Source: Thermoleophilia bacterium (GTDB taxonomy: Bacteria; Actinomycetota; Thermoleophilia; Gaiellales; Gaiellaceae). From it: DNA of 63,136 nucleotides. Position 1 is the first letter of the stretch. The number at the start of each line of letters is the position of its first letter. The stretch lies in contig JAICME010000001.1 of the NCBI GenBank assembly GCA_025929425.1, positions 1-63,136 of the forward strand, given 5' to 3'. Both the position numbers and the translations under genes were made by a program. The notes beneath the pieces were generated by a model. It did not search any database and was not told the DNA's origin. It saw only the letters and a program-made list of their open reading frames with translations. This document shows positions 2,747-18,403 of this stretch, piece by piece.

Positions 2747-3459
2747 GCCGTAAGAGCAGAATGAAGGGTGTCCGGGAAGCGAAGGATCGGCGCGCGAAGC
2801 GGATGGCCATCGGTGGCGCAGTCCTGCTCGTCGCAGTCCTCGCCTTCGAGATGCCCAAGGTCCTCAAGAGCCACGGCGGCAGCAACAGCTCTGCGCCTCC
2901 GGCTGCAACGACGACCACTACGAGCTACGGGGCTTCGACGACGCCCACGGGCACGCCTGTCGCGTCCGCGGCTGTCTTGCCTGCACCGAGCGCGAAGCTG
3001 ACGAGTTCGGACCTCGCACCGCGGCGATCGAAGTCGGAGCTCTACTCGTTCAGTCATTTCGCCGGCAAGGACCCGTTCGTCCAGCAGGTTTCGGCCTCCG
3101 ACATCACGAGCTCGCCGTCTGGGACCTCCGGCGCGAGCGGTGGTAGCAGCGGTGTCATCACCGCCGGCCCCCCGCCCTCGGCGCGGACGACGGCCGCGCG
3201 CATGCTCGCCCGGACTGGTGTGGTGACGCTCCAGGTCAACGGCAAGACTCAGTCGGTCCGGGTCGGCGGAAGCTTCCCGAGCTCGAACCCGCTCTTCAAG
3301 CTCGTCTCGGTCTCGCGTGGACTCGTGAGGATCGGCATCGCAAGCGGCTCGTACCAGAGCGGGGCGCAGACGGTCTCGCTCGTCTCTGGCCGCACGCTGA
3401 CCCTCGTCGACACGGCGGATGGCGTTCGCTACCGGATCAGGTTGCTCTCGGCGTCGTGA
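2743..3459 (+). CDS. PilP-like pilus assembly protein (membrane-anchored, Ser/Thr-rich linker)
   Basis: ATGA overlap with pilO. It has an N-terminal TM (IGGAVLLVAVLAF), a low-complexity linker, a GKDPF motif (PilP proteins carry R/K-D/N-PF) and a C-terminal beta-rich domain. Operon position supports the call. Confidence 0.5.
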   Translation: MSRKSRMKGVREAKDRRAKRMAIGGAVLLVAVLAFEMPKVLKSHGGSNSSAPPAATTTTTSYGASTTPTGTPVASAAVLPAPSAKLTSSDLAPRRSKSELYSFSHFAGKDPFVQQVSASDITSSPSGTSGASGGSSGVITAGPPPSARTTAARMLARTGVVTLQVNGKTQSVRVGGSFPSSNPLFKLVSVSRGLVRIGIASGSYQSGAQTVSLVSGRTLTLVDTADGVRYRIRLLSAS

Positions 3460-3959
3460 CCGCGGCTGTAGTCATCGATCTGCGGAGGGGCCGCCTGAGC
3501 GGGCTCTTCGCGAGAATGCGCGACGAAGACGGGATCGGGCTCATCGAGCTCCTGATCGCGCTCCTCGTCCTGAACGTCGGCATCTTCGCCACGCTCGGCG
3601 CGTTCACCTCGGCGGCGTCGACTCTGAAGCGCTCGAGCCGGATCTCCACAGCCGCGGCTATCGCCGATCAGGAGATCGAGGCGCTGCATAACCTCAAGTA
3701 CAGCCAGATCGTCAACGTCGGCCCGGCCGCGTGGCCAAGCGCGCAGACGCCCGACGGCGGGTCCTACACCTTTCAGGTCGTGGTGACCTCAGGAGCCGGC
3801 GTCCAGGTCACCGGCGGCAGCGCGAACCTCAAGCAGGCCGCAGTGACCGTGACCAGCAACGCCGACCCCAGGGCCAAGGTGACCAGCATCACGACCTTCT
3901 CCCGGTGTACGCAGTCGGGCCTCCAAGGAGATACAGGGCAGACGCCCTGTCAGAGCTGA
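3456..3959 (+). CDS. Prepilin-type N-terminal cleavage/methylation domain protein (minor pilin / pseudopilin)
   Basis: The class III signal is ...MRDEDG|IGLIELLIALLVLNVGIFATLGAF, with Gly at -1 and Glu at +5. An alternative in-frame ATG at 3516 would give the classic 6-aa leader MRDEDG. The GTG at 3456 overlaps the upstream stop. Confidence 0.8.
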   Translation: MTAAVVIDLRRGRLSGLFARMRDEDGIGLIELLIALLVLNVGIFATLGAFTSAASTLKRSSRISTAAAIADQEIEALHNLKYSQIVNVGPAAWPSAQTPDGGSYTFQVVVTSGAGVQVTGGSANLKQAAVTVTSNADPRAKVTSITTFSRCTQSGLQGDTGQTPCQS

Positions 3960-5179
3960 TGGCCGGCTTCGCTTACAGCGCAATCAGCATCGACGGGCTC
4001 GAGACCGTCGGCGAAATCCACGCGCCCGACCTCGAGGCAGCCCGCGAGCAGCTTCGTATTCGCGGTCTGCTCGCGCACACGCTTCGCGAACTTCCCGCCA
4101 GCGGCGAGGACAACCTGCGGACGGCGTTCAAGAAGATCAAGCCTCGCTCGATGCAGATCTTCTCGCGCCAGTTCGCGACCATGATCGAGGCCGGCCTCAA
4201 CATCGTCGCGTCCCTCGTGATCCTCGAGGAGCAGACCGACGATGTCTATCTGGCCGAGATCATCTCCGAGCTCCGCGCCGACGTCGAGGGAGGCCTTCTC
4301 CTCTCTCAGGCGATGGCGCGGCACCCGAAGGTGTTCAACGAGCTCTATGTCTCGATGGTGCAGGCCGGTGAGGCCTCGGGCATGCTCGACAACGTCCTCG
4401 ACCGTGTCGCGGACCAGATCGAGAAGGAGACGAAGCTCAAGCGCCGCGTGAAGGGCGCGATGATCTACCCGACGGTGGTCTTCACCTTCGCCACGCTCGT
4501 CCTCGTGGCCATGCTGATGTTCATCGTCCCGATCTTCGCGAGGATCTTCACCGAGCTGGGCGGCCAGCTGCCGTTCCTGACACGGGTCGTCGTGAGCGCC
4601 TCCGACCTCCTTCGGGCGCGGTGGTACATCATCTTCCCGCTCGTCGCGTTCGGCGTCTGGGGCACGCTTCGCTACAAGAAGTCCGAGTCAGGCCGCCAGA
4701 AGTGGGATCAGATCAAGCTCCGGATCCCGCTCAAGATCGGCGAGGTCGTGCTCAAGATCACGATGGCGCGGCTCCTGCGCACGCTTGCCACGCTCGTCGC
4801 CGCCGGCGTCGACATCATCAAGGCGCTCGAGATCTCAGGCTCGACGGCCGGCAACTGGCTCGTCGAGAAGGCGCTGACCGACGCCCGCATCAAGGTGCAG
4901 GAGGGCGTTCCGATTGCCGAGCCGCTGACGAACAACCCGCTCTTCCCGCCCATGGTCAGTCAGATGGTCAAGATCGGCGAGGAGACGGGTGAGCTCGAGA
5001 AGATGCTCTCGAAGATCGCCGACTTCTACGAGGACGAGGTCGACAGCGCGATCCAGTCCCTGACCTCCATCATCGAGCCGATCATGATGATCGGAGTCGG
5101 GATGATGGTCGGCGTCATCATCATCGCGATGTACCTGCCGATGTTCAAGATGATGCAGCTGATCGGTAACTCCGGCTGA
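3959..5179 (+). CDS. pilC: Type IV pilus platform protein PilC (GspF family)
   Basis: ATG 3959 overlaps the upstream TGA. The 407-aa protein has two GspF-type repeats (FSRQFATMIEAGLNIVASL; MARLLRTLATLVAAGVDIIKAL) and TM helices. ORF-track 3731..5179 carries a non-genic N-terminal extension. Confidence 0.88.
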   Translation: MAGFAYSAISIDGLETVGEIHAPDLEAAREQLRIRGLLAHTLRELPASGEDNLRTAFKKIKPRSMQIFSRQFATMIEAGLNIVASLVILEEQTDDVYLAEIISELRADVEGGLLLSQAMARHPKVFNELYVSMVQAGEASGMLDNVLDRVADQIEKETKLKRRVKGAMIYPTVVFTFATLVLVAMLMFIVPIFARIFTELGGQLPFLTRVVVSASDLLRARWYIIFPLVAFGVWGTLRYKKSESGRQKWDQIKLRIPLKIGEVVLKITMARLLRTLATLVAAGVDIIKALEISGSTAGNWLVEKALTDARIKVQEGVPIAEPLTNNPLFPPMVSQMVKIGEETGELEKMLSKIADFYEDEVDSAIQSLTSIIEPIMMIGVGMMVGVIIIAMYLPMFKMMQLIGNSG

Positions 5180-6287
5180 TCCGGCTGAGCCCGGCGCACG
5201 AGACGGCATAGACGGCACGTATCGCGGCTCGCTCCAGACCGCGGGCGCGAGCCGGGTCGGGCATGTCGCCCTGCAGCATCTTCGCAAGGGCGCGGAACGT
5301 GATCGGTAGCCGCGCGAGCGCGTAGGTCGTGCCCGGGAAGTGCTCGAACGCGCGCTTCGCCTGCCAGCCGGCCCGGGTCAGCGGCGTAATCCGCCGTTCC
5401 ACCGCCGCCTGGTACGGCTCGAGCGTCTCGGCGCGGCCGGCGAGCACGTCGAGCGCCGCCTCGGACACGAGCTGCGCGGAGAGGAACGCCTCGTACATCC
5501 CGTCCCCCGAGAGCGGGTCGACGAGCCCGGCGGCATCTCCGATCACGGCCGTCGTCCCACGCGCGAGCCGTGTGGCGGTCAGCCGCATCGGCAGCCGGTA
5601 GCCGCGGGTGTCCTGCGCCGCGGCCGGGTCGATGCCGTAGGCCTCGCACATCCGCTGCAGCTCGGCGCGAAGCTTCGGCCCCTCCTCCCCGTTCCCGCCG
5701 ACGCCGACGTTGATGTGGTCGCCCTTCGGAAAGATCCAGCCGTAGCCACCACGGATGACGGCGATCTCGAGCACCATCGCTCCCGCGTAGCGGGCTTCGT
5801 ACGGGTAGTTCGCCTCGAGCGCGACGCCGTGCTCGACCTGCTCGGCGAGGCCGAGCTGTTTCGCGGACGCGCCGTTGCAGCCGTCGGCGCCGATCACGAT
5901 CCGCGCATCGAGCTCCCGTGCGTCGGCCGTCTCCCCCTCTCGCACCTCCGCCCCGGCCTCGGCCGCCTTGTGGAGGAGGAAATGGTCGAGCCGCTTCCGC
6001 TGGGTCATGTACGCGAGAGGCGCATGCGCCCGGCGGGTGAAGCGGTGCCGGTAGCGAAGCCCACACTCGAGCCGGTGGGCGACGTCCTCGACCACGGGCT
6101 CGATCGAGAACGGCAGCAACCGCGCAGCGCGACCGGTCACGCCGCCGCCGCACGGCTTGTCGCGCGGGAACCTCGCCTTGTCTATGAGGAGCACGCTCGC
6201 GCCCGCGGTCGCCAGCCGATACGCGGCCGTCGAACCCGCGGGCCCACCGCCGACGATTGCAACGTCGTAGCTCGTCACGACCCCCAA
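5145..6287 (-). CDS. Geranylgeranyl reductase family FAD-dependent oxidoreductase
   Basis: The N-terminus YDVAIVGGGPAGSTAAYRLATAGASVLLIDKARFPRDKPCGGGV is typical of this family. The 3' end overlaps pilC convergently by 35 nt. Confidence 0.8.
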   Translation of the reverse strand: MGVVTSYDVAIVGGGPAGSTAAYRLATAGASVLLIDKARFPRDKPCGGGVTGRAARLLPFSIEPVVEDVAHRLECGLRYRHRFTRRAHAPLAYMTQRKRLDHFLLHKAAEAGAEVREGETADARELDARIVIGADGCNGASAKQLGLAEQVEHGVALEANYPYEARYAGAMVLEIAVIRGGYGWIFPKGDHINVGVGGNGEEGPKLRAELQRMCEAYGIDPAAAQDTRGYRLPMRLTATRLARGTTAVIGDAAGLVDPLSGDGMYEAFLSAQLVSEAALDVLAGRAETLEPYQAAVERRITPLTRAGWQAKRAFEHFPGTTYALARLPITFRALAKMLQGDMPDPARARGLERAAIRAVYAVSCAGLSRISRSYRSAASS

Positions 6288-6309
6288 AGCTACAATGGCG
6301 CCCCTCGTC

Positions 6310-6391
6310 GGGGGTGTGCCCGAGCGGCCAAAGGGAACGGGCTGTAAACCCGTCGGCTCAGCCTACGGAGGTTCGAATCCTCCCGCCCCCA
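6310..6391 (+). tRNA. tRNA-Tyr (anticodon GUA), class II with long variable arm, no encoded CCA
   Basis: Hand-folded. Acceptor GGGGGTG/CGCCCCC (one G-U). D-arm CCCG-AGCGGCCAAA-GGGA. Anticodon stem ACGGG/CCCGT with loop CTGTAAA. Long variable arm. T-arm GGAGG-TTCGAAT-CCTCC. Closely parallels E. coli tyrT. Confidence 0.9.
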
Positions 6392-6404
6392 CTCACTCAC
6401 TCAC

Positions 6405-7133
6405 TCACAGCGGGGCGCTTTGGAGGATGTTCACCGCCCTCGCCACAACCATCACGGCGAGGGCGAGGCTGATCGCCGACTCGATGAGCATCAGCATCTT
6501 CGCCCAGCGGCTCAGCGGCATCGCATCCGTGGGACTGAACGCCGTCGCATTCGTGAACGAGACGTAGAGGTAGTCGAGAAACTGAGGCTGCCAGCCCATT
6601 TCCGCGAACTGCGGCTCCGTTTGCTGAGGGAAGAGAAAGTCGCGCTCCGTGTGGGTGCGCGTCGGGCGTGTGATCGGCCCGCCGGCATCGAGCTGCCAGT
6701 ACCAGAGCGCGAAGAGAAGGACGTTCACGACCCACATGTGGACCGCGGCTCTGAGCAGCGTCGAAGCGGTCGCCTGCGCGCCGTTCACGAGTAGGTGGAT
6801 GAGGAGGATGATCGATGCCGAGTTCGCGGCGCTGACGATCGCGATCGACGCCAGGACGAGGCGGCGGCGGGTCACGCGCAGGACCTCCGGACGCCGCTCG
6901 AGAGCTCGCGCGAACGGCCCGCTCGGGCGGATGATGCCGAGCGCGACCAGGACGAGGACGGTGAGTGCCGGGACGACCCAGCGGACGACGCCGAAGGCTC
7001 CCCCACCCGAGCTCACGATGAAGCGCGAAGGGAGGTCGGCGTAGAGCCCGGCCGCCGCGACTAGCGCCGCTGCAGGCCAGAGCGGCGACTCGCCGAGCTC
7101 ATCGCTCGGCGCGAGCGCGCGGCGCACGTCCAC
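6405..7133 (-). CDS. Integral membrane protein (tentatively DUF1345-like)
   Basis: 242 aa with about 5-6 hydrophobic helices. The C-terminal string LYVSFTNATAFSPTDAMPLSRWAKMLMLIESAISLAL recalls DUF1345. The family call is unverified. Confidence 0.6.
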   Translation of the reverse strand: MDVRRALAPSDELGESPLWPAAALVAAAGLYADLPSRFIVSSGGGAFGVVRWVVPALTVLVLVALGIIRPSGPFARALERRPEVLRVTRRRLVLASIAIVSAANSASIILLIHLLVNGAQATASTLLRAAVHMWVVNVLLFALWYWQLDAGGPITRPTRTHTERDFLFPQQTEPQFAEMGWQPQFLDYLYVSFTNATAFSPTDAMPLSRWAKMLMLIESAISLALAVMVVARAVNILQSAPL

Positions 7134-7198
7134 CCGTGTGAGGCTACGCGGGGCGTCGGCGGGAACCGCCCGCGAACGGGGCTACAATCGGCCTTCCA

Positions 7199-7271
7199 GC
7201 CCTCTTAGCTCAGTTGGTAGAGCACCTCCATGGTAAGGAGGGGGTCGACGGTTCGAGTCCGTCAGAGGGCT
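7199..7271 (+). tRNA. tRNA-Thr (anticodon GGU)
   Basis: Hand-folded. Acceptor GCCCTCT/AGAGGGC. D-arm GCTC-AGTTGGTA-GAGC. Anticodon stem CCTCC/GGAGG with loop ATGGTAA. T-arm GACGG-TTCGAGT-CCGTC. Discriminator T. Confidence 0.92.
7230..7271 (+). repeat. attL-like copy of a 42-bp direct repeat (3' half of tRNA-Thr)
   Basis: ATGGTAAGGAGGGGGTCGACGGTTCGAGTCCGTCAGAGGGCT is identical to 18362-18403. A further ACCTC matches one mismatch upstream in both copies. Confidence 0.9.
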
Positions 7272-7332
7272 TTGCTGATTTGCAGGGACTTCGGCTTAGT
7301 AACCGGCTGGCACTCGAACCAAGATCCCATGT

Positions 7333-7351
7333 GAGGGAACACTGAGGGAAC
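7333..7351 (+). repeat. 19-bp motif GAGGGAACACTGAGGGAAC (internal GAGGGAAC x2), left-arm copy
   Basis: Identical to 18223-18241. Lies 62 nt inside the island from the tRNA end. Confidence 0.85.
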
Positions 7352-7589: not shown

Positions 7590-7967
7590 TCACGAGCCCA
7601 CTAACCAGAGGAGCACGTTCTCCCACTCACTGAAGGCGTCGGGTCCGGTTGTATCCCACTCGTCGGGAAGCTCCGCCTCCTGGAGTCCTCGATGGAAACC
7701 GCGCAGTGTCCACTCTGTGACCATCCAGACCACGACGCGGACCGGGACCGAGTACGTCTTTCCCTTCTGGAGTTCCGCAAGGAGGCGCAAGAAGACCCGC
7801 TGCGCCGCCTCGTCGCCGGCCTCGCGTGTTCCGAGCCGGAAGAAGCAGCGATCGCGCACCGGCGTGAAGTAGCCGGCGAGCAGCAGCTTGTGCTCCCCCT
7901 CATGTAGTAGCCGCTGATCCTCAGCGTCGCGAGCATCGTGCATCGACGACATAGTCCTCGAGGACAC
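7590..7967 (-). CDS. Sigma-70/ECF region-2-like protein lacking region 4 (truncated sigma or stand-alone sigma2 domain)
   Basis: 125 aa. AGDEAAQRVFLRLLAELQKGKTY..PVRVVVWMVTEWTLRGFHR matches the sigma region 2.1-2.4 pattern. No HTH region 4 follows. Confidence 0.5.
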   Translation of the reverse strand: MSSRTMSSMHDARDAEDQRLLHEGEHKLLLAGYFTPVRDRCFFRLGTREAGDEAAQRVFLRLLAELQKGKTYSVPVRVVVWMVTEWTLRGFHRGLQEAELPDEWDTTGPDAFSEWENVLLWLVGS

Positions 7968-8047
7968 GGCTCGATCTTACGACGACCCGATTGGAAGTAA
8001 GAGAACGCGCTCGACTCGGGGACTCCTTGGAAATGAAAGGAGCCCAG

Positions 8048-8977
8048 ATGATCGAGAACAGCATCCAGCTCGGCGATCCGGTCGAGCACCGCGGCATCGT
8101 GATCGCGCCCCTCTTTCCCCGGCAGGATTCCATCGCCGAGTTCGTGACACTCGAAGAAGCGCTCCCACTCGGCTTTCGCATCACCGAGATCGACGCAGCG
8201 GGCTCCGTCCCCGAGCTCATAGCTTCCAATCCACTTGATTCGCCGGTTCTCCTGTACGACGGCGAAGAGCTGCTTGGGGCGAAGCAAAACCGAATACTCA
8301 ACGTCACGGTGCTCGTGGATGCGAAGAGCGAGACCCGAGTCCCAGTTTCGTGCGTCGAGCAGGGCCGCTGGCATGCCCAGAGCGCCACGTTCAGTGCGAC
8401 CAAACACACCGCATATCCGGATCTTCGCCGCCGCAAGGCAGAGCGCCTGAGCGCCTCGCCGATGTCGCCAGGCGTCGCCCAATCGGCAGTCTGGGAGGAG
8501 GTCGCCGCGAAGGCTGGCCGCCATGGTGTCCACTCGCCAACTGGGGCGCATGCCGACATCTATCGGAATCGTGCAGAGGAACTATCGCGCCTGCGGCGAG
8601 CATTCCCGCTCGTGCCCGGCCAGTCCGGTGCTGTGCTCGTACTGGGGGACGACCAGCTCTGCCTCGACTATTTGTCGCGACCCGCAGCCTTCGCCCGCCT
8701 CTACCCGAAGCTGCTCGACGGCTACCTCCTCGACGCACTAGATCGCCAAGGGAGGACAGCTTGCCCCGATCGGCTGACTGAGTTCATAGGCGCCGTCTCC
8801 GGTGCCAACCGGCACGACTCATCCTCGGTCGGGCTCGGTAAGGACCTTCGCCTAGCTGGCGATGACGTGGTCGGCTCAGGCCTCGCGCTCAACGAGGAGC
8901 TGCTTCAGCTATCCGCATTCACACGCGATGCTCACCGCCCGGTGACGCGCATCGGGCCTCCGAGCCGCCGCCATTGA
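8048..8977 (+). CDS. Conserved uncharacterised protein (recalled as DUF6569-like family; unverified)
   Basis: Start chosen at ATG 8048, 5 nt after GGAG; the ORF is open from 7991. The strings SVPELIASNPLDSPVLLYDGEELLGAKQNRILNVTVLV...TRVPVSCVEQGRW and SGAVLVLGDDQLCLDYLSRPAAFARLYPKLLDGYLLDAL match a widespread bacterial family of unknown function. Confidence 0.65.
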   Translation: MIENSIQLGDPVEHRGIVIAPLFPRQDSIAEFVTLEEALPLGFRITEIDAAGSVPELIASNPLDSPVLLYDGEELLGAKQNRILNVTVLVDAKSETRVPVSCVEQGRWHAQSATFSATKHTAYPDLRRRKAERLSASPMSPGVAQSAVWEEVAAKAGRHGVHSPTGAHADIYRNRAEELSRLRRAFPLVPGQSGAVLVLGDDQLCLDYLSRPAAFARLYPKLLDGYLLDALDRQGRTACPDRLTEFIGAVSGANRHDSSSVGLGKDLRLAGDDVVGSGLALNEELLQLSAFTRDAHRPVTRIGPPSRRH

Positions 8978-9031: not shown

Positions 9032-9616
9032 TCAGATTCCCCAAGCGGAGTCGTCTTCCGTTGCGTCGGAGGACCCCACCAGCTCAAACTGACGCAGATC
9101 GAAGCCGAAAGAGTGCCGGGCGTTCCCACGATCATCGAGCAATCGGTTGAGGTAGTCGTGACCGCGGACAGACCCGACCTCGATCGAGTGCCGAAGAGCA
9201 GGGAATGACGCGCGCCATACACCATGGATCCGGTCGACTTTATAGCTAGCTCCGCCGATGTCCCTGCGGGTTTCTTGCCAGTCGATCCAGAAGTAGATGT
9301 CCAGAGACGGGTAGTGCTCGCAGTAGCGCTCATAGTCCTTCCGGTTGAAGGTGACTGCGTACCGGGGATCAATCCCAAAGCGCTCACGTGCTTTGAAAAA
9401 CGGCGTCCGTTGGCACTTCAGATCGGCGAGATGCCCTTCGACAAGGAGGTCGGGCGCATAGGGATCCTGCGCCTTCGCGGGATTAAGCACGGCCTGGAAT
9501 CCGAGCGCCGGGAGGACACGTTGGACAAAGGTCCACTCCTTCTCGCGTCCTGCCTCGACCCAATAGCGCTTGTCTTGAGGCGAGACGCCCATCTCGCTCA
9601 CCCGTATCGGCGGCAC
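9032..9616 (-). CDS. PD-(D/E)xK nuclease-fold-like hypothetical protein
   Basis: 194 aa. The ordered motif is E(KEW)...APD-LLVEGHLA-DLK (PD...D-x-K), with the spacing expected of restriction-endonuclease-like cores. No adjacent methyltransferase. Confidence 0.5.
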   Translation of the reverse strand: MPPIRVSEMGVSPQDKRYWVEAGREKEWTFVQRVLPALGFQAVLNPAKAQDPYAPDLLVEGHLADLKCQRTPFFKARERFGIDPRYAVTFNRKDYERYCEHYPSLDIYFWIDWQETRRDIGGASYKVDRIHGVWRASFPALRHSIEVGSVRGHDYLNRLLDDRGNARHSFGFDLRQFELVGSSDATEDDSAWGI

Positions 9617-9907: not shown

Positions 9908-10759
9908 ATGCCTCTCCGCCGCCCACAATCACAAGCGCCTGGAGAAGCCGTAGGGCCCCCGATCCCGTGGCCCCGCTTGCTCGTCGCTGCCCTTGGCCTT
10001 GCGTTCCTCGCCTACGGCTGCCTTCTTGCATGGAAGGCATCGTCGGCAGATCTTGTCCTCGGGGTTGGGGCGGTACTCTTGCTCCTAGCTTTTCTGGTTC
10101 CGGCCGACTGGCGGAAATTGACAGTCGGACTTCCAGGCGGTGGATCGCTCGAGGTCGAACGGGCAGAAGCTGCGCAGGAGGCCCTCCGGAGCCTCCCACA
10201 CGAGTTGCAGCAAGAGATCGTCCAGGCCGAAGCCCTACCCGAACTCGAAGCTCCAGCAGAGGCCGTGGCCAACGAAGGCGGCGATGGAGACGGGGTGGCG
10301 GCCGGACAGCCCGAGCCAGCGCCCGCGCCGCCTGCTGAACCTGCCGAGTCGCCCGCGGAACGACTTGCGCGGTTCTTGATCACCCAAGATGCGTTCGCCA
10401 CACACGAAACGGCGACGCGATGGCTTCAGTTGAGGCTCAAGCGCAGGGTGGATTTGGCCTCCTCGCCGACGCCGGTCACCTGCGCGGTGCGCAAGGCCGG
10501 CGGCGGTTGGGCTGTCGGGGTGCCCCGCCTTACTGGGGCGGGTGATCCCCCCAGGCTCTTCGGGACGACAACCGTCGCTCGAGCAGGGACATGGCTCGAG
10601 TATCAGGCCGTCTTCCCGGACTTCTTCATGGAAGCCGGCGCTGACGTCGAGGTGGAGTTCCCTCCTGGCGAGTATGTCGTTTACTGGGGCACGCCGACTT
10701 CGACCGGCGGGGTGCACCTGCTCGCCACCGACCGCTTCGGTTGGCCGCCGGGGGCCTAG
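9908..10759 (+). CDS. Hypothetical membrane-anchored protein (2 TM, acidic Pro/Glu/Ala linker, about 130-aa C-terminal domain)
   Basis: 283 aa. TM helices are LLVAALGLAFLAYGCLLAW and VLGVGAVLLLLAFLV. The linker is EALPELEAPAEAVANEGGDGDG...PAPAPPAEPAESPAE. No family recognised. Confidence 0.5.
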   Translation: MPLRRPQSQAPGEAVGPPIPWPRLLVAALGLAFLAYGCLLAWKASSADLVLGVGAVLLLLAFLVPADWRKLTVGLPGGGSLEVERAEAAQEALRSLPHELQQEIVQAEALPELEAPAEAVANEGGDGDGVAAGQPEPAPAPPAEPAESPAERLARFLITQDAFATHETATRWLQLRLKRRVDLASSPTPVTCAVRKAGGGWAVGVPRLTGAGDPPRLFGTTTVARAGTWLEYQAVFPDFFMEAGADVEVEFPPGEYVVYWGTPTSTGGVHLLATDRFGWPPGA

Positions 10760-11003: not shown

Positions 11004-13148
11004 TTGCACCGGCCTTCCGACCCCGTCGAGTGGCAATCACGGCCCGGGTCGGCATATCCTCGTTCTGTGGCGATCGACGCCTCGGAGCTGCGACACGGCC
11101 GCGTTCGCGGGCGCTACTTTCGCGAGAACTTCGCGCAGGCGGGAATCGATCTCACGCAGATCATCCCCGAGCTCGTGACCAACGCTGACGCTGCAATAGC
11201 CGCGGCAGGACGCGAGCGCGGCCGGATCCACCTGCGAATCGGACCTGCGGATCGGGAATTCCAGCAGGCGTGGAAGGCTTCCCTCCGTAAGCTCCGTCTA
11301 CCGGCACTGCGCAGCTGGCGCTACGAGCTCGTCTGTTCCGATGACGGCGAAGGCGTCGACGCCGACGCTGTGGATCAGCGTCTCGGCGCACTCGGAGTCG
11401 TCCCGGAAAGCGAAGGTCAACGCGGTCTCTTCGGCCGCGGTCTGCGCGACGTCTGGCTCGCCCAAGGCGGCGGGCGCATCCAGGGCGTGCGCGGCGAGTG
11501 TGCCGTGGAGTCATGGTTCTTGCCTGCTGCCGGCGACGAACCGTACGTCTACACGCACGTCCTCGACGCTTCCGTCACACCCGCGATCCGTCACGAGCTC
11601 GGCATCCCACGCGAGGGGACACGAGTGACGGTGCCGCTGGCCGACGGGCGGCTCCCGCCCAACGCCCGCCTGCGCAGGCTGGTCTCCGACCTCGTGCAAC
11701 TGCGACCGATCCTCGAGGACGAGACCCGCGAGCTGCTGCTCGAACTGCCGGAAGAACCGCTGCAACTCATCCGCTACGGGCCGCCGGAGCCGGACCCGGA
11801 GCGGCCGCTCCTCTTAGATGAAGAGGTCGAGCTTCAGCGTGGCGTGACGGCGCGAATCCTCGTTCGCCGCGCCGCACAGCCAATACCACTCAACCCCGCC
11901 CGCGCCGCCCGCCGCGGCGGACTCGTCGTGCTATCAGGGCGCGCCGCGCACGAAACGACGCTCGCCGGGTTCGAAGCCCGTCCCGGCGCTCGACACCTGT
12001 ACGGCGAGGTTCGCTGCGAAGCGATCGAGCAGCTGCAGCGCGAGGCGCTCGAGACCCCACGACCGCAGGTCGTCGTCCGCGTCGACCGCAGCGGCCTCAA
12101 CGACGCCCATCCGCTCGTGCGCCGGCTGTACGCGCAGCTCGAGCGGATTCTGCGCCCGATCGTCGACGCAGAAGAACGGCGAGCCGGCGCTCGTTTAGTT
12201 CGCGCCGGCAGAGAGACCGCCGCCCGGGACGCGGTCGGGCTGCGCGCGCTCAACGACGCGCTCCGCACCGCCTTCGACGCCCCCGGGCGAGCCGGTTTTG
12301 CGCGGCGAGGCAGACCCACGGAGCAGCCGCCGCTCGAGGAGCGGGAGGAGCGGGAGGAGCGGGAGATCGTCCCACCGCCCTCTGCACCGCGCTCGTCTGC
12401 GGTCGTCGACGCCGCGATTCGCTTCAAGCAGTCGCCAGTACGCCTCCACCCGGGCGAGCAGCGGACCGTCTCGCTCCTCTTCGACCCGATGCGCGTCCCG
12501 GCTGGTACGCCAATCGACGTCGCCACGGACCCCGGCCTCTCGCTTTCGCTCTGGCGCAATGCCGTACCGCCACCGGTGTCAGGCGGATGGTCCCGTGTCA
12601 GCGGCAAGGTTCGGGCGCTCGTCTCCGCCGAACCCGGCTCGCAGCTGAGCGCCTTCGCCGAGGCTGGCGGCCATGACGCCGAGCTCGTCGTCGTTGTTGT
12701 CCGTCACCACGGGAGCGGCTGGGTGCGCGAGATCGCGCGCAAGGACGAGGATTCGCACGTCGAGGCCGAGTTCGAACCCGAGACGGGCATCGTCACGGTT
12801 TACGAAGGACGGCGCGAGTTCAAAGCCCTCGAGCGCGCTGCACGGCAGGCCGGCTTAGCACGCTCGCGCGTCCGCGAGTACGTCCCATACCGGATGCTCG
12901 AGGTCGAGGTCGCCGCCAACGCCCTCTACTGGTGGGCCGCAGAACGGATCCTGGAGCGGCGTCTTCCGGGCGAGCGACCAGCCGACCCGGCTGAGTTCGC
13001 CGCCGTCGTGCGCATGGAGGCCCAGATGCTCCGCCACCGGTTCCACGACAAGTTGATGAAGGCTTTCCTGGGGCCTGAAGTCTTCGACGGAACGGTCGTC
13101 GTTGCGCAACAGCCGACGACGGCGAGCGAGCAGCTCCGCCTCGGTTGA
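11004..13148 (+). CDS. GHKL-superfamily ATPase (HATPase_c_3/MORC-like N-terminal domain) with about 500-aa uncharacterised C-terminal region
   Basis: The three Bergerat-fold motifs occur in order: ELVTNADAA (ExxxNxxD), CSDDGEGV (DxGxG) and RGLFGRGLRDVW (GxxGxG). The start is ambiguous: TTG 11004 or in-frame GTG 11067. Confidence 0.7.
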   Translation: MHRPSDPVEWQSRPGSAYPRSVAIDASELRHGRVRGRYFRENFAQAGIDLTQIIPELVTNADAAIAAAGRERGRIHLRIGPADREFQQAWKASLRKLRLPALRSWRYELVCSDDGEGVDADAVDQRLGALGVVPESEGQRGLFGRGLRDVWLAQGGGRIQGVRGECAVESWFLPAAGDEPYVYTHVLDASVTPAIRHELGIPREGTRVTVPLADGRLPPNARLRRLVSDLVQLRPILEDETRELLLELPEEPLQLIRYGPPEPDPERPLLLDEEVELQRGVTARILVRRAAQPIPLNPARAARRGGLVVLSGRAAHETTLAGFEARPGARHLYGEVRCEAIEQLQREALETPRPQVVVRVDRSGLNDAHPLVRRLYAQLERILRPIVDAEERRAGARLVRAGRETAARDAVGLRALNDALRTAFDAPGRAGFARRGRPTEQPPLEEREEREEREIVPPPSAPRSSAVVDAAIRFKQSPVRLHPGEQRTVSLLFDPMRVPAGTPIDVATDPGLSLSLWRNAVPPPVSGGWSRVSGKVRALVSAEPGSQLSAFAEAGGHDAELVVVVVRHHGSGWVREIARKDEDSHVEAEFEPETGIVTVYEGRREFKALERAARQAGLARSRVREYVPYRMLEVEVAANALYWWAAERILERRLPGERPADPAEFAAVVRMEAQMLRHRFHDKLMKAFLGPEVFDGTVVVAQQPTTASEQLRLG
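12336..12365 (+). repeat. In-frame 9-nt tandem repeat (GAGGAGCGG x3 + GAG) encoding EEREEREERE inside the GHKL gene
   Basis: Read directly from the sequence at 12336-12365. Confidence 0.9.
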
Positions 13149-13226: not shown

Positions 13227-14120
13227 TTAGCTCGTCGCACCCGTGGATGGGGTATCACCAAATCCTGCCCATCTACGGAGATCGGATAGCTGCACGGTCT
13301 CACTCGGAAGCCATCGCTGGTGGAGCGGGAGCTTAATCGTCGACCGGAGGCCATCAACCAGGACGTCCTGCATCGCCTGGAGCGTGTTTGCGCGGGCACG
13401 CCAGAGCACGAGGGCAGCTCCGAAGCCGAGCACAGACCATGCGAGGCCGGCAGCGAGCGCATCTACCCATCCACTCGGTATGGCATCCGCATGCACCGCG
13501 GCGTTATATGTGAATGCGACCAAGGTCGCCGTTAAGACTGCGTACCGCGATCCTCCGAGCGCGTGATAGGTCTCTGCTCGGCCCCCATATTCTCCCCGAA
13601 GGATCTCACTGTCGTCCTTATCCACGGCGTAGAGCATCAACCAGCGCACTGCCCGCCAGTTGGTCCGTCGCGCCAAGCGGTATGCGCGACGACCTTCTCG
13701 GGTGTTTTCCACTAGTTCGAATCGCCCCCGCGGCCCAACCTTCCAGATGCGTTTATCTGAGTTGAAAATCGCGCGTTCAGAGAGGTCTACCGTCAAACCT
13801 CGTTTGTCGACCACCGCGAGATGCTCGGGATCGAGCCGGGTCAAAACATTTCGCCCTCGATCGAGGGGGACAGGAAACCACGGAGACCAGGTCGCCATTC
13901 CGTCCCAGAGGAGGTAGTAGATCTGATTCATCAAGAATCCGAGTGGTACGCCGAGTGCGATGAGCAGCACTGCGATCCCCGAATCCAGTTGATGACCGAC
14001 AACGGCGCCCGCCACCTCACGCTTCGTGATCAGCGCGAGCATGAACTCGTCGAGGACCAACACCATGATCAGCACAGCGCCCGGGATGCTCCAGCGGATC
14101 AGTTGCCGCGAGGTGTCCAT
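13227..14120 (-). CDS. Hypothetical multi-pass membrane protein with central soluble domain
   Basis: 297 aa. N-terminal TMs are IPGAVLIMVLVLDEFMLALI and GIAVLLIALGVPLGFLM. C-terminal TMs are YAVLTATLVAFTY and ALAAGLAWSVLGFGAALVLW. It lies in the most AT-rich part of the island. Confidence 0.6.
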   Translation of the reverse strand: MDTSRQLIRWSIPGAVLIMVLVLDEFMLALITKREVAGAVVGHQLDSGIAVLLIALGVPLGFLMNQIYYLLWDGMATWSPWFPVPLDRGRNVLTRLDPEHLAVVDKRGLTVDLSERAIFNSDKRIWKVGPRGRFELVENTREGRRAYRLARRTNWRAVRWLMLYAVDKDDSEILRGEYGGRAETYHALGGSRYAVLTATLVAFTYNAAVHADAIPSGWVDALAAGLAWSVLGFGAALVLWRARANTLQAMQDVLVDGLRSTIKLPLHQRWLPSETVQLSDLRRWAGFGDTPSTGATS

Positions 14121-14186: not shown

Positions 14187-14423
14187 CTAGCCCGGCGGTG
14201 GGAACGGGTCATGGGCGGGAGGCACGGTGTCGCGCTTGCGGATCTGGCCACCGCGACTGTGCACAAGGAGCTCGCCGCCCCCGTCGCCGCGCAGGATTTG
14301 GCGCGCGCGATCGACGGCTCGCTCTTGCGTAGGGAGGATCGCACTCGCCCGCTTCGCGTGCGGCGCGACGACCTTCCACTGGTTCCCGTCCCGCACGACA
14401 TGCCGCTGGTTCTGCTTGTTCAT
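14187..14423 (-). CDS. DUF2188 domain protein
   Basis: 78 aa. HVVRDGNQWKVV..AKRASAILPTQERAVDRARQI....GGELLVHSRGGQIRKRDT follows the DUF2188 pattern as I recall it. Confidence 0.65.
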   Translation of the reverse strand: MNKQNQRHVVRDGNQWKVVAPHAKRASAILPTQERAVDRARQILRGDGGGELLVHSRGGQIRKRDTVPPAHDPFPPPG

Positions 14424-14543
14424 GCCACCTCCTAGAGTTGGAATTCTGATTGTAGCATGTTCGGATCATCATATCCACCTACAGTTCGTCGTCTCACTGT
14501 GCTACGATCTGACCATCCGAAACGCCGCAGGAGGTGAGATCGC

Positions 14544-14867
14544 TTGGAGAAGAGTCTTGAGAAGAGGTTGAGCGGCACGTTGCGCGATCGCGGTCAGATC
14601 ACGATCCCCAAGGAGATTCGGGAGGAGGCGCAGCTCGAGGAAGGCGCAGAGGTTGATTTCGAGGTTCGAGAACCCGGCGAAGTAGTGATCCGGCGCAAGA
14701 TCTCCTTTGACACCCTCGAGCTCGACGACGAGTTCGTCCATTCCGTGATCTCGTCGACGACTCAGGGATACGAGACCCTGCGCGCTGACGACACGGCGTG
14801 GGACTCGGAGCTCGAGGAGCGTGCTGTGCTCGAAGGGTCGCTCGGCGACGGGCTTTCCGAGGACTGA
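14544..14867 (+). CDS. mazE: AbrB/MazE/SpoVT-family antitoxin
   Basis: TTG start 8 nt after AGGAGG. It has a swapped-hairpin motif (RGQITIPKEIREEAQLEEGAEVDFEV) and an acidic C-terminal tail. The stop overlaps the mazF ATG. Confidence 0.8.
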   Translation: MEKSLEKRLSGTLRDRGQITIPKEIREEAQLEEGAEVDFEVREPGEVVIRRKISFDTLELDDEFVHSVISSTTQGYETLRADDTAWDSELEERAVLEGSLGDGLSED

Positions 14868-15244
14868 TGAGCGCACCGCATTGGGCAGAGGTCTGGGACG
14901 TTGACTTCGGCAATCCAGCCGGTCACGAGCAGGGCCGACAGCGGCCGGCGGTCGTCGTAAGCGCCGACTGGTTCAACGACACACGGGCGGAGTTGCACAT
15001 CGTCGTTCCAATCAGCGGCACCCTGCGCGGCAACATCGGCACGCACTATCGAATTGACGCGCCGTCCGGTGGCCTCGACGTTGACAGCGAGGCAATGTGC
15101 GAGCACCTCCGCTCCGTCTCGGCTGAGCGGTTCGTCCGCAAGCGTGGAGTGCTTGATCGGGCGCAGATGGACGAGCTGACAAAGCGGGTCAAGCTTTTGA
15201 TCTTGCAGGTGGCGCCGCCACGGCGGCGCGAAAGGGAAGGCTAG
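14867..15244 (+). CDS. mazF: MazF/PemK-family type II toxin (mRNA interferase)
   Basis: ATG 14867 overlaps the mazE TGA. The pattern is WDVDFGNPAGHEQGRQRPAVVVS...HIVVPISGT....THYRI.....GLDVDSEAMCEHLRSVSAERF. Confidence 0.85.
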   Translation: MSAPHWAEVWDVDFGNPAGHEQGRQRPAVVVSADWFNDTRAELHIVVPISGTLRGNIGTHYRIDAPSGGLDVDSEAMCEHLRSVSAERFVRKRGVLDRAQMDELTKRVKLLILQVAPPRRREREG

Positions 15245-15252
15245 GAATAAGC

Positions 15253-15489
15253 GTGCACATCTTCATCAACAGGCGAAAGATCGATGTGGCCGGTGGGATC
15301 ATGACTGGCGAGCAGATCTTGGTCGCCGGCGAGTACGGGCCTGACTACAACCTCTATCTACTCAAGGGCGAGGGTGACCCAAGCGGCGGTACGCCTGTTG
15401 GGCGTGAGGAGAACCTCGAGGTCAAGAACGGAATGCATTTCAGAGCAATCCCAGGGAACGCGAATTTTGGCAACCGCGGTCAGCGATAA
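15253..15489 (+). CDS. Beta-grasp ubiquitin-like protein, single 'multiubiquitin'-type domain
   Basis: GTG start 8 nt after the mazF stop. The 78-aa sequence IFINRRKIDVAGGIMTGEQILVAGEYGPDYNLYLLKG...PVGREENLEVKNGMHFRAIPGNANFG fits the bacterial Multiubiquitin family pattern. It ends ...FGNRGQR, with no terminal GG. Confidence 0.7.
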   Translation: MHIFINRRKIDVAGGIMTGEQILVAGEYGPDYNLYLLKGEGDPSGGTPVGREENLEVKNGMHFRAIPGNANFGNRGQR

Positions 15490-15862
15490 TCCGCTCCTCG
15501 CCGAGGACCTTGGGCGCGTAGCTGAGGCTGGCTACGACACTGAATTGCTCCTTGCCGGCGACCAGGTCGGCGTCGTCGTGCGCGACGTGCCACTGCCAGA
15601 GGGCCGGTGGTCACAGGAGTCGACCGATGTAATGCTGATGACCACCGTCCTCTATCCGCAATCGGCGATGGACATGTTTTGGACGCCGCCTGATCTCCGC
15701 CTCGCTTCGGGCGACGAGCCGACGGCTTCAAACCTCGAGGTGCACTTCGAACGCCCGTGGCGCCGCTTCAGCTGGCATCGAAATTCCGAGTGGCGTCCGG
15801 GTCGCGACGACCTCCTTTCGCACTTTGAGTTCGCCCTGGCTCGTCTCAACGATGGCAGGTGA
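15467..15862 (+). CDS. E2/UBC-fold-like protein (Prok-E2_E-like), no cysteine
   Basis: The start is uncertain: TTG 15467 (23-nt overlap with the Ubl gene) or GTG 15374. The string VVVRDVPLPEGRW...DVMLMTTVLYPQSAMDMFWTPPDLRL is analogous to the E2 YP..PP segment. No HPN motif and no Cys anywhere in the 131 aa. Confidence 0.6.
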   Translation: MATAVSDNPLLAEDLGRVAEAGYDTELLLAGDQVGVVVRDVPLPEGRWSQESTDVMLMTTVLYPQSAMDMFWTPPDLRLASGDEPTASNLEVHFERPWRRFSWHRNSEWRPGRDDLLSHFEFALARLNDGR

Positions 15863-17178
15863 CTTACCTGGCAGTCAGCGAGCGTTCGGCTGAGGAGGTC
15901 TCTTCAAGGCTGCTTGCGGCCGCGCCGGCAGAGTCAGGTGTGTTCGTTCTCCTCAATCGGGTGGAGCGAGGCAGCGGCGCGCGGCTCGCTGTCGGATCTC
16001 CGATCTGGGACGTCGAGTTGGCACAGCAGAGAGCCGGACGAGTCGAACCAAGCGGACGGATGATCTCTGCTGCAGTGTCTGCGGCCAATCGCGAGGGCTG
16101 CGGTCTCGCCTTCATTCACACACACCCGGGTGATCGCCGCCCGCCTCATCTGTCCTCCCTTGACCACGAGACGACTATCCGACTCGGCGCCGCCTTCGAT
16201 GAACTTGTCGATGGCCCATTTGCAAGTCTGGTTGTTAGTCCCGGCGGCTGGGGAGGTGCGCTCTACGAACACGGATCCCTTCTCCCACTCGACGGCTTAG
16301 CGCTGGTTGGCCGGCGGCTTCGGCTATTCCGAGTGGGGAAGGCGCCTAAAGGAGTCGGCGATGAGACCGACAGTCGTCAGCGTCGGCTCCTCGGCGAGGA
16401 TGGAAATCGGCTTCTTCGCTCACTTCGAGTTGGGGTGGTAGGAGTCGGCGGGACCGGCTCGCCAATCGCGGAAATTCTGGCGCGGATTGGAGTAGCCGAA
16501 TTGCTGCTCATTGACCCCGACAAGCTCGAGCCGTCCAATGTGCGTCGGGTCTTCTCGGTAGGGCGAGCCGAAGGGCAAGGAGGCGAATCGAAGGTTGGCG
16601 CGGTAGCCCGCGGACTCGAGGGACTAGACCTCGGTACGCGAGTCACTGCTGTGGAGGCCGACGTCCGCGAACGCGAGATTCAGGGCCAGCTTCTTGAGTG
16701 CGACGTCGTCTACGGCGCGACTGACAACCACGCGAGCCGGTCGATGCTGACCGAGCTATCGGCCCGCGGTCACTTACCACTGATCGATGTCGGTGTTCGC
16801 GCGGGCGTACGAGAGACCGGCGAGCTCGACGCGCTCTATGTCGAGCGGCGACTGCAGATCCCTGATGGACCCTGCCTTTGGTGTTGGGGCGTCCTCGATG
16901 CTGAGCGCGTGCGGCTTGAGCTGATGCCAGCGTTCGAACGGGAGGCCCTTGCCGCAGAAGGCTACGTCGCCGGAATCGACGCGGCGCCCGAGCCAACCAT
17001 CGCCCCTTTGACGGTGACGGCCGCGGGACTCGCCACCACCACCCTCCTCGGCCTTCTCGGCGGAGGCTTGGAGGTGGGCCCGCTTCGGGCAGGCTTCGAG
17101 TCGCTAAGGGTCGAGTCGATCGCCTACGCAGACGAGCCCGATCCTGACTGCATCTGCCGACGCTGGCGCCCCGCGTAG
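15859..17178 (+). CDS. JAB/JAMM metallopeptidase domain fused to ThiF/MoeB-type E1 adenylyltransferase
   Basis: GTGA overlap with the E2-like gene. JAMM elements are AESGVFVLL, then FIHTHPGDRRPPHLSSLD (HxH...SxxD). E1 elements are VGVVGVGGTGSPIAEILARIGVAELLLIDPDKLEPSNVRRV and YGATDNHASRS. The Cys pairs CLWC and CIC look like a Zn site. Confidence 0.85.
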   Translation: MTYLAVSERSAEEVSSRLLAAAPAESGVFVLLNRVERGSGARLAVGSPIWDVELAQQRAGRVEPSGRMISAAVSAANREGCGLAFIHTHPGDRRPPHLSSLDHETTIRLGAAFDELVDGPFASLVVSPGGWGGALYEHGSLLPLDGLALVGRRLRLFRVGKAPKGVGDETDSRQRRLLGEDGNRLLRSLRVGVVGVGGTGSPIAEILARIGVAELLLIDPDKLEPSNVRRVFSVGRAEGQGGESKVGAVARGLEGLDLGTRVTAVEADVREREIQGQLLECDVVYGATDNHASRSMLTELSARGHLPLIDVGVRAGVRETGELDALYVERRLQIPDGPCLWCWGVLDAERVRLELMPAFEREALAAEGYVAGIDAAPEPTIAPLTVTAAGLATTTLLGLLGGGLEVGPLRAGFESLRVESIAYADEPDPDCICRRWRPA

Positions 17179-17449
17179 AGGCGATGACCTGTCGGCACCC
17201 CTTCCCGGTCCCAGGAGAACACCCGTGTGCGCCGAACCGGTGGTTTAGGCTTGGCCCGAACCTGCCGAAAACCGGAGTGACAGTGAACAAGCGGGCAGCA
17301 AGACGGAAGGCATTGGAGGAGGCGGCGGCCGCACGCAAGCACGTCGTGCAACACGGCCAGATCGGTTTTAACTACCGCCCCACTCCACCGAGCGGTCCCG
17401 CGCCGCACTCCGAGGACGCGGCAAACCGCCGCACGCCTCGTCGCCGCGG

Positions 17450-17890
17450 CTAGCGCGGGTCGTTTCGATTCGTCAGGGGTATGCCTTCGAGGCCCGAGCT
17501 GCGCACGCAAATCCGCGTCGAAGCATGCGGAGCGCGATCGATGTCGACGCGCAACATCATGTCGAGGTCACCGGCCACATGTGCCGAGAGCGCAAACGTG
17601 TCGACTCGCAGGGTCGGGAGACTGAAGTCATCGTCGTAGTCCGGGATGACGTGCGGGAAGAGTGCAATCGCGTGTTCTTGATCTTCCTCGGCGAGAGCCG
17701 CAATTACCTCGACCTCATGAACGCCACAGTCGACGTCGTCGTAGCGCACCTCGACGATACCGCCCGCCTCGATCAAATAGGGGTAGCTGTCGACGATGAA
17801 GATTCCGTCGTGTTTCCAGCCGATATCGATCTCGTTCGTCTGGAGGTCGACCTTCGGGACCTCTTTGGTGAGGAGAACGCTGGCGTCCAT
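17450..17890 (-). CDS. Hypothetical acidic protein
   Basis: 146 aa, rich in D/E, with no recognisable family. Convergent to the E1 gene. AT-richer codon usage, like the rest of the island. Confidence 0.5.
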   Translation of the reverse strand: MDASVLLTKEVPKVDLQTNEIDIGWKHDGIFIVDSYPYLIEAGGIVEVRYDDVDCGVHEVEVIAALAEEDQEHAIALFPHVIPDYDDDFSLPTLRVDTFALSAHVAGDLDMMLRVDIDRAPHASTRICVRSSGLEGIPLTNRNDPR

Positions 17891-18361: not shown

Positions 18362-18403
18362 ATGGTAAGGAGGGGGTCGACGGTTCGAGTCCGTCAGAGG
18401 GCT
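18362..18403 (+). repeat. attR-like copy of the 42-bp direct repeat (partial tRNA-Thr 3' half, not a functional tRNA)
   Basis: Identical to 7230-7271. No acceptor 5' strand or D-arm lies upstream. Confidence 0.9.

Follow-up and report, generated by a model that had tools for sequence, protein, structure and literature searches.

The locus described here raises the question of how a ubiquitin-like conjugation pathway could function when its E2-like component contains no cysteine at all, and which other genes such a pathway would work with. The window analyzed, meaning the whole stretch of 63,136 nucleotides (63 kb), covers positions 1 to 63,136 of contig JAICME010000001.1 (GenBank assembly GCA_025929425.1) of a Thermoleophilia bacterium of the family Gaiellaceae. 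The genes in question, named here bubA, bubB, and bubCD, encode a ubiquitin-like protein (Ubl), an E2-like protein, and a fusion of a JAB peptidase with an E1-type adenylation domain (JAB::E1). They had been described as a three-gene conjugation operon by a model that saw only the nucleotide sequence and its open reading frames (ORFs), referred to below as the original prediction. Judged from the comparisons reported here, and with a probability of roughly 0.75, the locus is read as a mobile-island cassette for a Bub-type (Type I/6E.1-like), cysteine-free Ubl conjugation pathway that is expressed together with mazE and mazF and in which two further genes, p56 and p146, take the place of BubE.

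The 6E/DUF6527 gene neighborhoods were renamed Bub (bacterial ubiquitination-like) by Ye, Gong, Chambers & Corbett (bioRxiv 10.1101/2024.11.21.623953), and the Type I reference is the BubAB-BubCD-BubE operon of Citrobacter sp. RHBSTW-00271 (PDB 9ea4, 9eae, 9eav); Type I as published consists of a BubAB fusion with BubE. According to the same work, the JAB domain of BubCD cuts after a conserved Ubl glycine, the E1 has no catalytic cysteine and uses an invariant crossover-loop tyrosine (Y370) instead, and the E2 uses Ser333, His335, and Asp299, so that conjugation proceeds via Tyr and Ser oxyesters. Conjugates are taken off again by BubE (DUF6527), a Ser-His protease. In the Bub systems of Citrobacter and E. 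coli, conjugation was lost when the residues matching Y369, S102, H104, and D69 of the window proteins were mutated. The statement of the original prediction that this architecture lacked experimental characterization is therefore out of date, since the Bub mechanism was published by Ye et al. in 2024.

Identification of the E1 and E2 components

The best PDB match of the JAB::E1 fusion was Citrobacter BubCD (9ea4, E 1e-16), with an alignment over residues 24-392 that included both domains, and the protein was also matched by the Pfam ThiF model (E 4.7e-28). The JAMM residues, the E1 residues R230 and D289, and the crossover-loop pair GY369 were invariant in 16 homologues, with H87 nearly invariant. 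Cysteines were located at C81 in the JAB half, at C281 (LLECDVV), and in the pairs C339/C342 and C431/C433, which are the zinc pairs (CxxC...CxC) of the E1; none lies between C342 and C431. The crossover loop was without cysteine in all 18 loci, out of 22, in which the motif could be placed.

BubB was assigned to Pfam Prok-E2_E (PF14462) with an E-value of 3.8e-23, and its only match in the PDB was Citrobacter BubB (9eae_C, E 5.6e-9). The protein contains neither cysteine nor lysine. Its residues D69, S102, and H104, which correspond to the catalytic residues of Citrobacter BubB, were invariant in an alignment of 30 E2 sequences that included the BubE-linked loci of Oscillatoria, Deinococcus, and Microbacterium. 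The residues singled out in the original prediction, namely an E2 without cysteine, the two cysteine pairs plus C281 in the E1, and a Ubl ending in FGNRGQR, were all found as described, and its idea of a relay without thioesters was correct in kind: the oxyester residues, a tyrosine in the E1 and Ser-x-His plus Asp in the E2, are conserved.

The original prediction had also allowed that the Ubl might be merely adenylated, or that the E2-like protein might be a non-catalytic adaptor, with no covalent E1 or E2 intermediates formed. Such a reading would account for an E2 and an E1 crossover loop without cysteine, and ThiF/MoeB-type enzymes are generally known to be able to act as pure adenylases. 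It is nevertheless quite unlikely, because D69, S102, and H104 are invariant; Y369 is likewise invariant family-wide, and the counterparts of these residues were needed for conjugation in Citrobacter and E. coli Bub.

The strong ThiF score, together with the PADLOC E1-E2 (Cap2-type) models that match the adenylation domain, could also be taken to indicate an ordinary ThiF/MoeB sulfur-carrier (ThiS/MoaD) system, a Cap2/Cap3 module of a cyclic-oligonucleotide-based antiphage signaling system (CBASS), or a bacterial ISG15-like (Bil) system. The PADLOC matches, however, were restricted to the E1 adenylation core of BubCD, and PADLOC, PHROGs, and NCBIfam gave no match for the Ubl, the E2, p56, or p146. 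Scores against NCBIfam equivalogs of ordinary ThiF/MoeB enzymes did not exceed 74 bits, against cut-offs of 150-650 (best, 74 versus 275). The E1 is fused to a JAMM domain and not to an E2, and no CD-NTase, rhodanese domain, or GG-ended ThiS/MoaD was present among the island ORFs scanned. The E2 belongs to Prok-E2_E and has serine in the place of cysteine, the cassette has no BilD_N, and Bil operons with their own BilD_N E1 adjoin related cassettes as separate systems in loci L011-L013 (L numbers denote the related loci compared). Sulfur-carrier, CBASS, and Bil identities are excluded by this domain architecture.

The ubiquitin-like protein and its C-terminus

A profile of clade Ubls was aligned with canonical Multi_ubiq Ubls using hhalign, which gave a probability of 97.3% and an E-value of 2.5e-11 over 71/73 columns. 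The single BubA sequence had no match in the PDB. A profile that included canonical members matched the multi-ubiquitin beta-grasp structures 9d59, 8u38, 9d5b, and 9cd2, and these matches hinge on the three canonical sequences added to it; for that reason, the homology claim is based on hhalign and Pfam. BubA is accepted here as a single-domain Multi_ubiq Ubl, with the beta-grasp fold assigned by way of its homologues.

BubA ends in ...NANFGNRGQR. The motif FRAIPGNANFG is conserved, and its last residue, G73 (codon 15469-15471), is invariant in homologues. In fused relatives (approximately 209 aa) the ...NANFG glycine is followed by a linker and then by the E2, and in split relatives it is followed by 0-5 non-conserved residues: L004 has a stop codon directly after the glycine, L003 has a single extra H, and the Ubl of the window carries NRGQR. 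The mature Ubl therefore most likely ends in ...NANFG at G73, with NRGQR as a tail removed by the JAB domain. Cleavage after FG or after RG had been proposed; because G73 is invariant and the downstream tails are variable, a cut is to be expected after FG and not after RG. The further proposal that the JAB domain reverses conjugation was not borne out by the Citrobacter system, in which BubE did so; in the present locus, where BubE is absent, the JAB domain may still have this role.

In sum, the Ubl was placed in Multi_ubiq by hhalign, the E2 and the JAMM domain were identified by their matches to Bub structures, and the E1 stayed below the ThiF/MoeB cut-offs, all four as the original prediction would have them.

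Arrangement of the genes

The overlap of bubA and bubB is 23 nt, with bubB in the +1 frame, and bubB and bubCD share a GTGA overlap. Order and overlaps of the ubl, E2, and JAB::E1 genes were retained in dozens of homologues at 40-92% identity, and the three ORFs, found where they had been predicted, are for this reason considered real genes and not chance. The same gene order was seen in loci down to 48% BubCD identity. The description as a three-gene operon holds for the presence of the three genes and falls short in extent: in the conserved cassette, mazE and mazF abut the 5' side, and p56 and p146 come after bubCD. Coordinates of these genes and of the other features discussed are listed in Table 1.

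Table 1. Coordinates of the cassette, its predicted functional residues, and the surrounding island features in the window
Feature	Position	Strand	Description	Citrobacter counterpart
bubA	15253-15489	+	GTG start, TAA stop, 78 aa; Shine-Dalgarno AGGA ahead of start
bubB	15467-15862	+	TTG start, TGA stop, 131 aa
bubCD	15859-17178	+	GTG start, TAG stop, 439 aa
BubB active-site Asp	15671-15673		D69	D299
BubB active-site Ser	15770-15772		S102, in RRFSWHRN	S333
BubB active-site His	15776-15778		H104, in RRFSWHRN	H335
BubCD JAMM motif			E25, H87, H89, S99, D102	E28, H91, H93, D104
BubCD ATP-binding Arg			R230	R227
BubCD crossover-loop Tyr	16963-16965		Y369, in EGYVAG	Y370
p56	17283-17453	+	basic, 56 aa, isoelectric point (pI) 11.8; core ...V..F.Y.PTPPSGP..., Arg-rich C-terminus
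p146	17450-17890	-	acidic, 146 aa, pI 4.3; convergent with the operon, stop overlaps p56 stop
mazE	14544-14867	+	AbrB/SpoVT-type antitoxin, 107 aa; Pfam MazE_antitoxin (PF04014) E 9e-11; NCBIfam AbrB family E 1e-9
mazF	14867-15244	+	PemK/MazF endoribonuclease toxin, 125 aa; Pfam PemK_toxin (PF02452) E 8e-23, full length
Candidate operator/promoter	14452-14505	+	GTAGCA-N41-TGCTAC inverted repeat 5' of mazE, followed by Shine-Dalgarno GGAGGTGA
tRNA-Thr(GGT)	7198-7272		island insertion site
attL-like repeat	7230-7271	+	3' part of tRNA-Thr(GGT); exact 42-bp direct repeat with 18362-18403
attR-like repeat	18362-18403	+	closes the island; exact 42-bp copy of 7230-7271

Separate frames for the Ubl and the E2, as compared with the published BubAB fusion and BubE, could point to a decaying Type I Bub remnant in which bubAB has been frameshifted and bubE lost, leaving a non-functional locus, and frameshifted genes do occur in the metagenome-assembled genome (MAG) that carries L005. 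This is very improbable, since the same +1 split, with the E2 start inside or just past the 3' end of the Ubl gene, was present in L001-L004 and L011-L017, the catalytic residues are intact, the Ubl and the E2 are annotated apart in RefSeq even where BubE is present, and the loci without BubE group in one coherent clade that has new, conserved partners. A programmed +1 frameshift or a sequencing error linking the Ubl to the E2 was considered and ruled out, because the split occurs in at least 11 loci and the E2 has its own start codon (TTG, ATG, or GTG); in L004, the Ubl gene ends in Gly-stop and the E2 begins with ATG 4 nt later. The split is genuine and not a frameshift artifact, and in itself it is not new. 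Fused bubAB genes were found in the sister loci L006, L021, and L027 and in many metagenomic proteins (P0013-P0062), and in the RefSeq annotation of BubE-containing plasmid loci "multiubiquitin" and "E2/UBC" genes are likewise separate.

On the Oscillatoria nigro-viridis plasmid (L018, 2922-3755), RefSeq lists the Ubl (...TTEG-stop) and the E2 separately, in the same frame with a TAA between them; Oscillatoria BubAB was counted among the fusion proteins in the Bub paper (Ye et al., bioRxiv 10.1101/2024.11.21.623953). In L005 (254-3039, Gaiellaceae MAG), mazE, mazF, bubAB, and bubCD are each split across two frames, probably by assembly or sequencing errors, and this locus was left out of all arguments based on frames.

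Absence of BubE

Related loci were examined over +/-10 kb on either side. Using two BubE sequences, from the Oscillatoria and Deinococcus loci, as seeds, jackhmmer recovered BubE in L018, L019, L020, and L021b and found none in a six-frame translation of the 63-kb window or in the BubE-less loci. The zinc motif of the Oscillatoria BubE reads C..C...C. In pre-computed Pfam assignments, PF20137 (the DUF6527 family of BubE) was absent from the clade's own operons in L011-L017 and L021-L027, and the sole gene with this domain, in L021, belongs to an adjacent divergent canonical operon. In a neighbor-joining tree of BubCD sequences, the BubE-less loci formed a clade of their own, which among the genome loci examined was found mainly in Actinomycetota MAGs and in one Chloroflexota MAG (L006). 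The published Bub catalogue was built from DUF6527-containing operons, and the rule that all Bub operons have bubE is for that reason a reflection of the catalogue.

On the metagenomic contig L021, a canonical Type I Bub operon that includes BubE lies at 2125-4504 (-), and divergent from it is a MazEF-linked BubE-less operon with fused bubAB at 4668-7320 (+). Both operon types coexist there, and therefore neither simply replaces the other. A search with an 8-sequence profile gave 10 genome loci, and a more distant family is represented by L007-L010 (e.g., L008 1507-3753 and L009 9088-11317), with a JAB::E1 of approximately 500 aa, an E2-like protein of 143-157 aa with FWSW(N/K)W, and a Ubl that ends in ...PKGGG plus 2 residues; in L009, the next gene encodes a 174-aa protein.

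The partner genes p56 and p146

The gene p56 occupies the position that BubE has in canonical operons and was recognizable in 11 loci with 48-82% BubCD identity. No Pfam, NCBIfam, or PHROG match was obtained for it or for p146. The latter was present downstream of bubCD in every locus with at least 48% BubCD identity and in no more distant locus, and its family comprises about 20 representatives among 1.84 billion proteins, with no invariant Ser, His, Cys, or Lys. An AlphaFold2 model of p146 made with 5 sequences had a pLDDT of 41 and was unusable; the model based on a 22-sequence alignment, which was used throughout, predicts an all-beta sandwich (pLDDT 89, pTM 0.79). Foldseek comparison of this model with the PDB gave no significant neighbor, the best being generic immunoglobulin (Ig)-like, UNC119, and RhoGDI sandwiches at TM <= 0.46. 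In BFVD, the best matches were small uncharacterized phage proteins (M1PKK7, A0A4Y5TYM2, and A0A2P1JU14 of Anoxybacillus phage A403) with E-values of 4e-7 to 2e-6 and TM of 0.54-0.67.

The possibility that p146 is a diverged BubE was tried and rejected, as hhalign gave a probability of 0.1%, no Ser, His, or Cys is conserved, and only generic Ig-like sandwiches appeared in the fold search. p146 is read as a non-enzymatic binding partner that may act as adaptor, substrate, or decoy, and p56 and p146 together most likely serve as regulator, adaptor, or substrate.

Linkage to mazEF

The original prediction had left room for mazEF to recur beside homologues, and this is what was found: mazEF lies directly 5' of the Bub genes, with 2-nt spacing, in L002, L005, L011-L017, L021, and L027, loci that span 48-82% BubCD identity and have split or fused bubAB alike. 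In the window, the junctions of mazE-mazF-bubA-bubB-bubCD consist of 1-nt, 23-nt, and 4-nt overlaps and a single 8-nt gap. The mazF ATG overlaps the mazE stop codon (TGATG), and relatives of mazF are also called at 125 aa. Between the end of mazF and the start codon of bubA there are 8 nt, and the 3' end of mazF contains the Shine-Dalgarno sequence of bubA. A promoter scan between mazF and bubA detected no separate promoter-like site. Upstream of mazE, the GTAGCA-N41-TGCTAC pattern occurred once in the window and in 0 of 100 shuffles, and its TAGCA...TGCTA arms are conserved in L011-L017, so that the inverted repeat is a candidate operator/promoter region. The mazE, mazF, and Bub genes are probably transcribed from one promoter.

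MazEF might, on the other hand, be a mere neighbor, a hitch-hiking addiction module next to an autonomous Bub system (with p56 and p146) that has no link to MazF. Loci that retain bubA, bubB, and bubCD without MazEF speak for this view, and toxin-antitoxin modules are in general often island cargo. Set against it are the retention of MazEF in the same orientation and 2-8 nt from bubA across the whole identity range and in both bubAB arrangements, the placement of the bubA Shine-Dalgarno sequence, and the lack of a promoter-like site between mazF and bubA. Independence of the two modules is not the favored explanation but keeps considerable weight.

Genomic island

The cassette lies inside an island of approximately 11.1 kb at tRNA-Thr(GGT), bounded by the attL-like and attR-like repeats. 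The GC content of the island is 0.61-0.66, compared with 0.69-0.72 in the flanks, and the corresponding values at third codon positions (GC3) are 0.68-0.79 and 0.85-0.92. No integrase was recognized among the island ORFs in Pfam and other family scans. Neighbors of related loci include Bil operons (L011-L013), HNH/AAA_15 genes, restriction-modification, and GmrSD. The island and its neighbors are consistent with a defense-island habitat, and the island and conflict context of the original prediction was supported by the 42-bp repeats at tRNA-Thr and by the Bil, restriction-modification, and GmrSD genes beside relatives.

A further 19-bp repeat is present at 7333 and 18223, near the island ends. 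Other island genes include one at 7991-8977 (+) that encodes an ARPP-1 domain in full length (PF20208, E 2e-83); this family is known from predicted conflict systems. The neighbors of that gene at 7590-7967 (-), 9032-9616 (-), and 9908-10759 (+) have no family match. A 714-aa protein encoded at 11004-13148 (+) has only a weak N-terminal GHKL/HATPase_c match (E 0.027), and a predicted 297-aa membrane protein encoded at 13227-14120 (-) matches the NCBIfam BA5345 family (E 1e-10); these two cargo genes of the island lie upstream of the cassette, and related loci do not share them. A DUF2188 gene was found near BubE-less Bub operons in three otherwise unlike contexts: divergent and upstream in the window (14187-14423, -), directly downstream of bubCD in L006 (9642-9884), and 3 kb upstream in L023 (2366-2605). 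In the closest relatives L011 (5645-8481), L012 (334-3038), and L013 (321-3025), a complete Bil-type operon (BilA_UBL_2, BilB-like, BilD_N E1) is located divergently and immediately upstream of mazE, which places two different ubiquitin-like systems back to back.

Proposed pathway

In the proposed pathway, the JAMM domain of BubCD would first trim NRGQR from the 78-aa Ubl and expose Gly73. The BubCD E1 domain, which is ThiF-like and homodimeric and has a Cys4 zinc site, would then adenylate Gly73, and the crossover-loop Tyr369 would attack the adenylate to form a Ubl~Tyr oxyester. From there, the Ubl would move to Ser102 of the cysteine-free and lysine-free BubB with the help of His104 and Asp69, and BubB would hand it to a lysine of a target. 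The steps from adenylation to target were shown biochemically and structurally for the Citrobacter and E. coli homologues (bioRxiv 10.1101/2024.11.21.623953); for the window proteins we infer them from residue conservation.

Regulation is proposed from gene position. In other Bub operons the upstream slot is occupied by the stress-responsive regulators CapW, CapH+CapP, or CapK+CapS, and MazE, or MazE with MazF, in the same slot would autorepress the promoter of a transcript of five or six genes. If the labile antitoxin were lost during stress or infection, Bub would be induced and MazF released at the same time, and MazE(-MazF) may in this way couple Bub expression to antitoxin loss. A more elaborate version, in which the locus represents a third Bub type with BubE replaced by p56 and p146 and a Ubl cascade wired to MazEF, so that, for example, tagging of MazE, p146, or a phage protein gates release of the MazF RNase as an abortive-infection switch, is doubtful.

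Several points weigh against the reading of the locus as a BubE-less, MazEF-coupled Bub pathway. BubA scored E 7e-4 against Pfam Multi_ubiq, below the gathering score, a Ubl profile built from clade members only matched no solved structure in the PDB, and the N-terminus of BubCD matched Pfam Prok-JAB weakly (E 0.038). All chemistry is carried over by analogy from homologues at 25-33% identity. A bubE gene may lie in another part of the genome, as the searches covered the 63-kb window and +/-10 kb in relatives. MazEF is lacking in a p146-bearing sub-branch (L001, L003, L023) and in the deeper loci without BubE (L004, L006, and L024-L026), so that it is no obligatory part of the cassette and might be an addiction module in its own right. 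The promoter scan yielded no sigma-70-like site on the + strand upstream of mazE, and the terminator scan yielded none downstream of the operon. As of the 2026 literature, no Bub operon had been shown to protect against phage. Because Type I as published calls for BubE and a BubAB fusion, neither of which was found in the window, the locus is classed as a BubE-less relative that very probably works like Type I Bub.

Significance

A cysteine-free ubiquitin-like cascade had already been explained by the 2024 Bub work, and what this locus offers on the chemistry is confirmation, not discovery. What the DUF6527-based Bub catalogue overlooked is a whole BubE-less lineage that has p146 as a strictly co-occurring partner of its own, has p56 in addition, and is often tightly coupled to MazEF. 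The potentially useful and unexplained parts are the recurrent coupling to MazEF and the clade-specific partners p146 and p56. No Bub system has yet been given a known target or phenotype, and a minimal variant whose Ubl has one beta-grasp domain, whose E2 is free of lysine, whose MazF toxin offers an obvious read-out, and which brings along two candidates for substrate or adaptor could make Bub function easier to approach.

Comparison with known systems

The pair mazE-mazF resembles classical mazEF in having an AbrB-type MazE and a PemK/MazF toxin encoded by overlapping genes, and differs in that it runs straight (2-8 nt) into a Ubl conjugation operon, clade-wide; no report of such a linkage was found in the literature searched. 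Bil shares with the present locus a Ubl/E2/JAB/E1 module situated in defense islands, but has catalytic cysteines, an E1 of the IAD-AAD-CYS type, a stand-alone JAB protein, and an E2 that belongs to another family. Type II Bub (6E.2, E. coli ZDHYS365 BubA-BubBD-BubE) is similar in its E1 Tyr and E2 Ser oxyester residues and in its Multi_ubiq Ubl; unlike the locus described here, it has the E2 fused to the E1, no JAB, Lys and His beside the Ser, and BubE.

The greatest resemblance is to Type I Bub (6E.1), with which the window shares a JAB::E1 fusion with JAMM residues and a crossover Tyr in place of Cys, a Prok-E2_E E2 with Asp...Ser-x-His, a Multi_ubiq Ubl whose processing site has a conserved Gly, and a location in a tRNA-inserted mobile or defense island. 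It differs from Type I in that BubE/DUF6527 is absent, that the Ubl and the E2 are encoded by separate overlapping genes (fused in sister loci), that the Ubl has one beta-grasp domain and not three, and that the E1 carries a Cys4 zinc motif (CxxC...CxC); its proteins are only 25-33% identical to characterized members. MazEF occupies the slot usual for CapW, CapH+CapP, or CapK+CapS, and the clade-specific partner genes p56 and p146 complete the set of differences.

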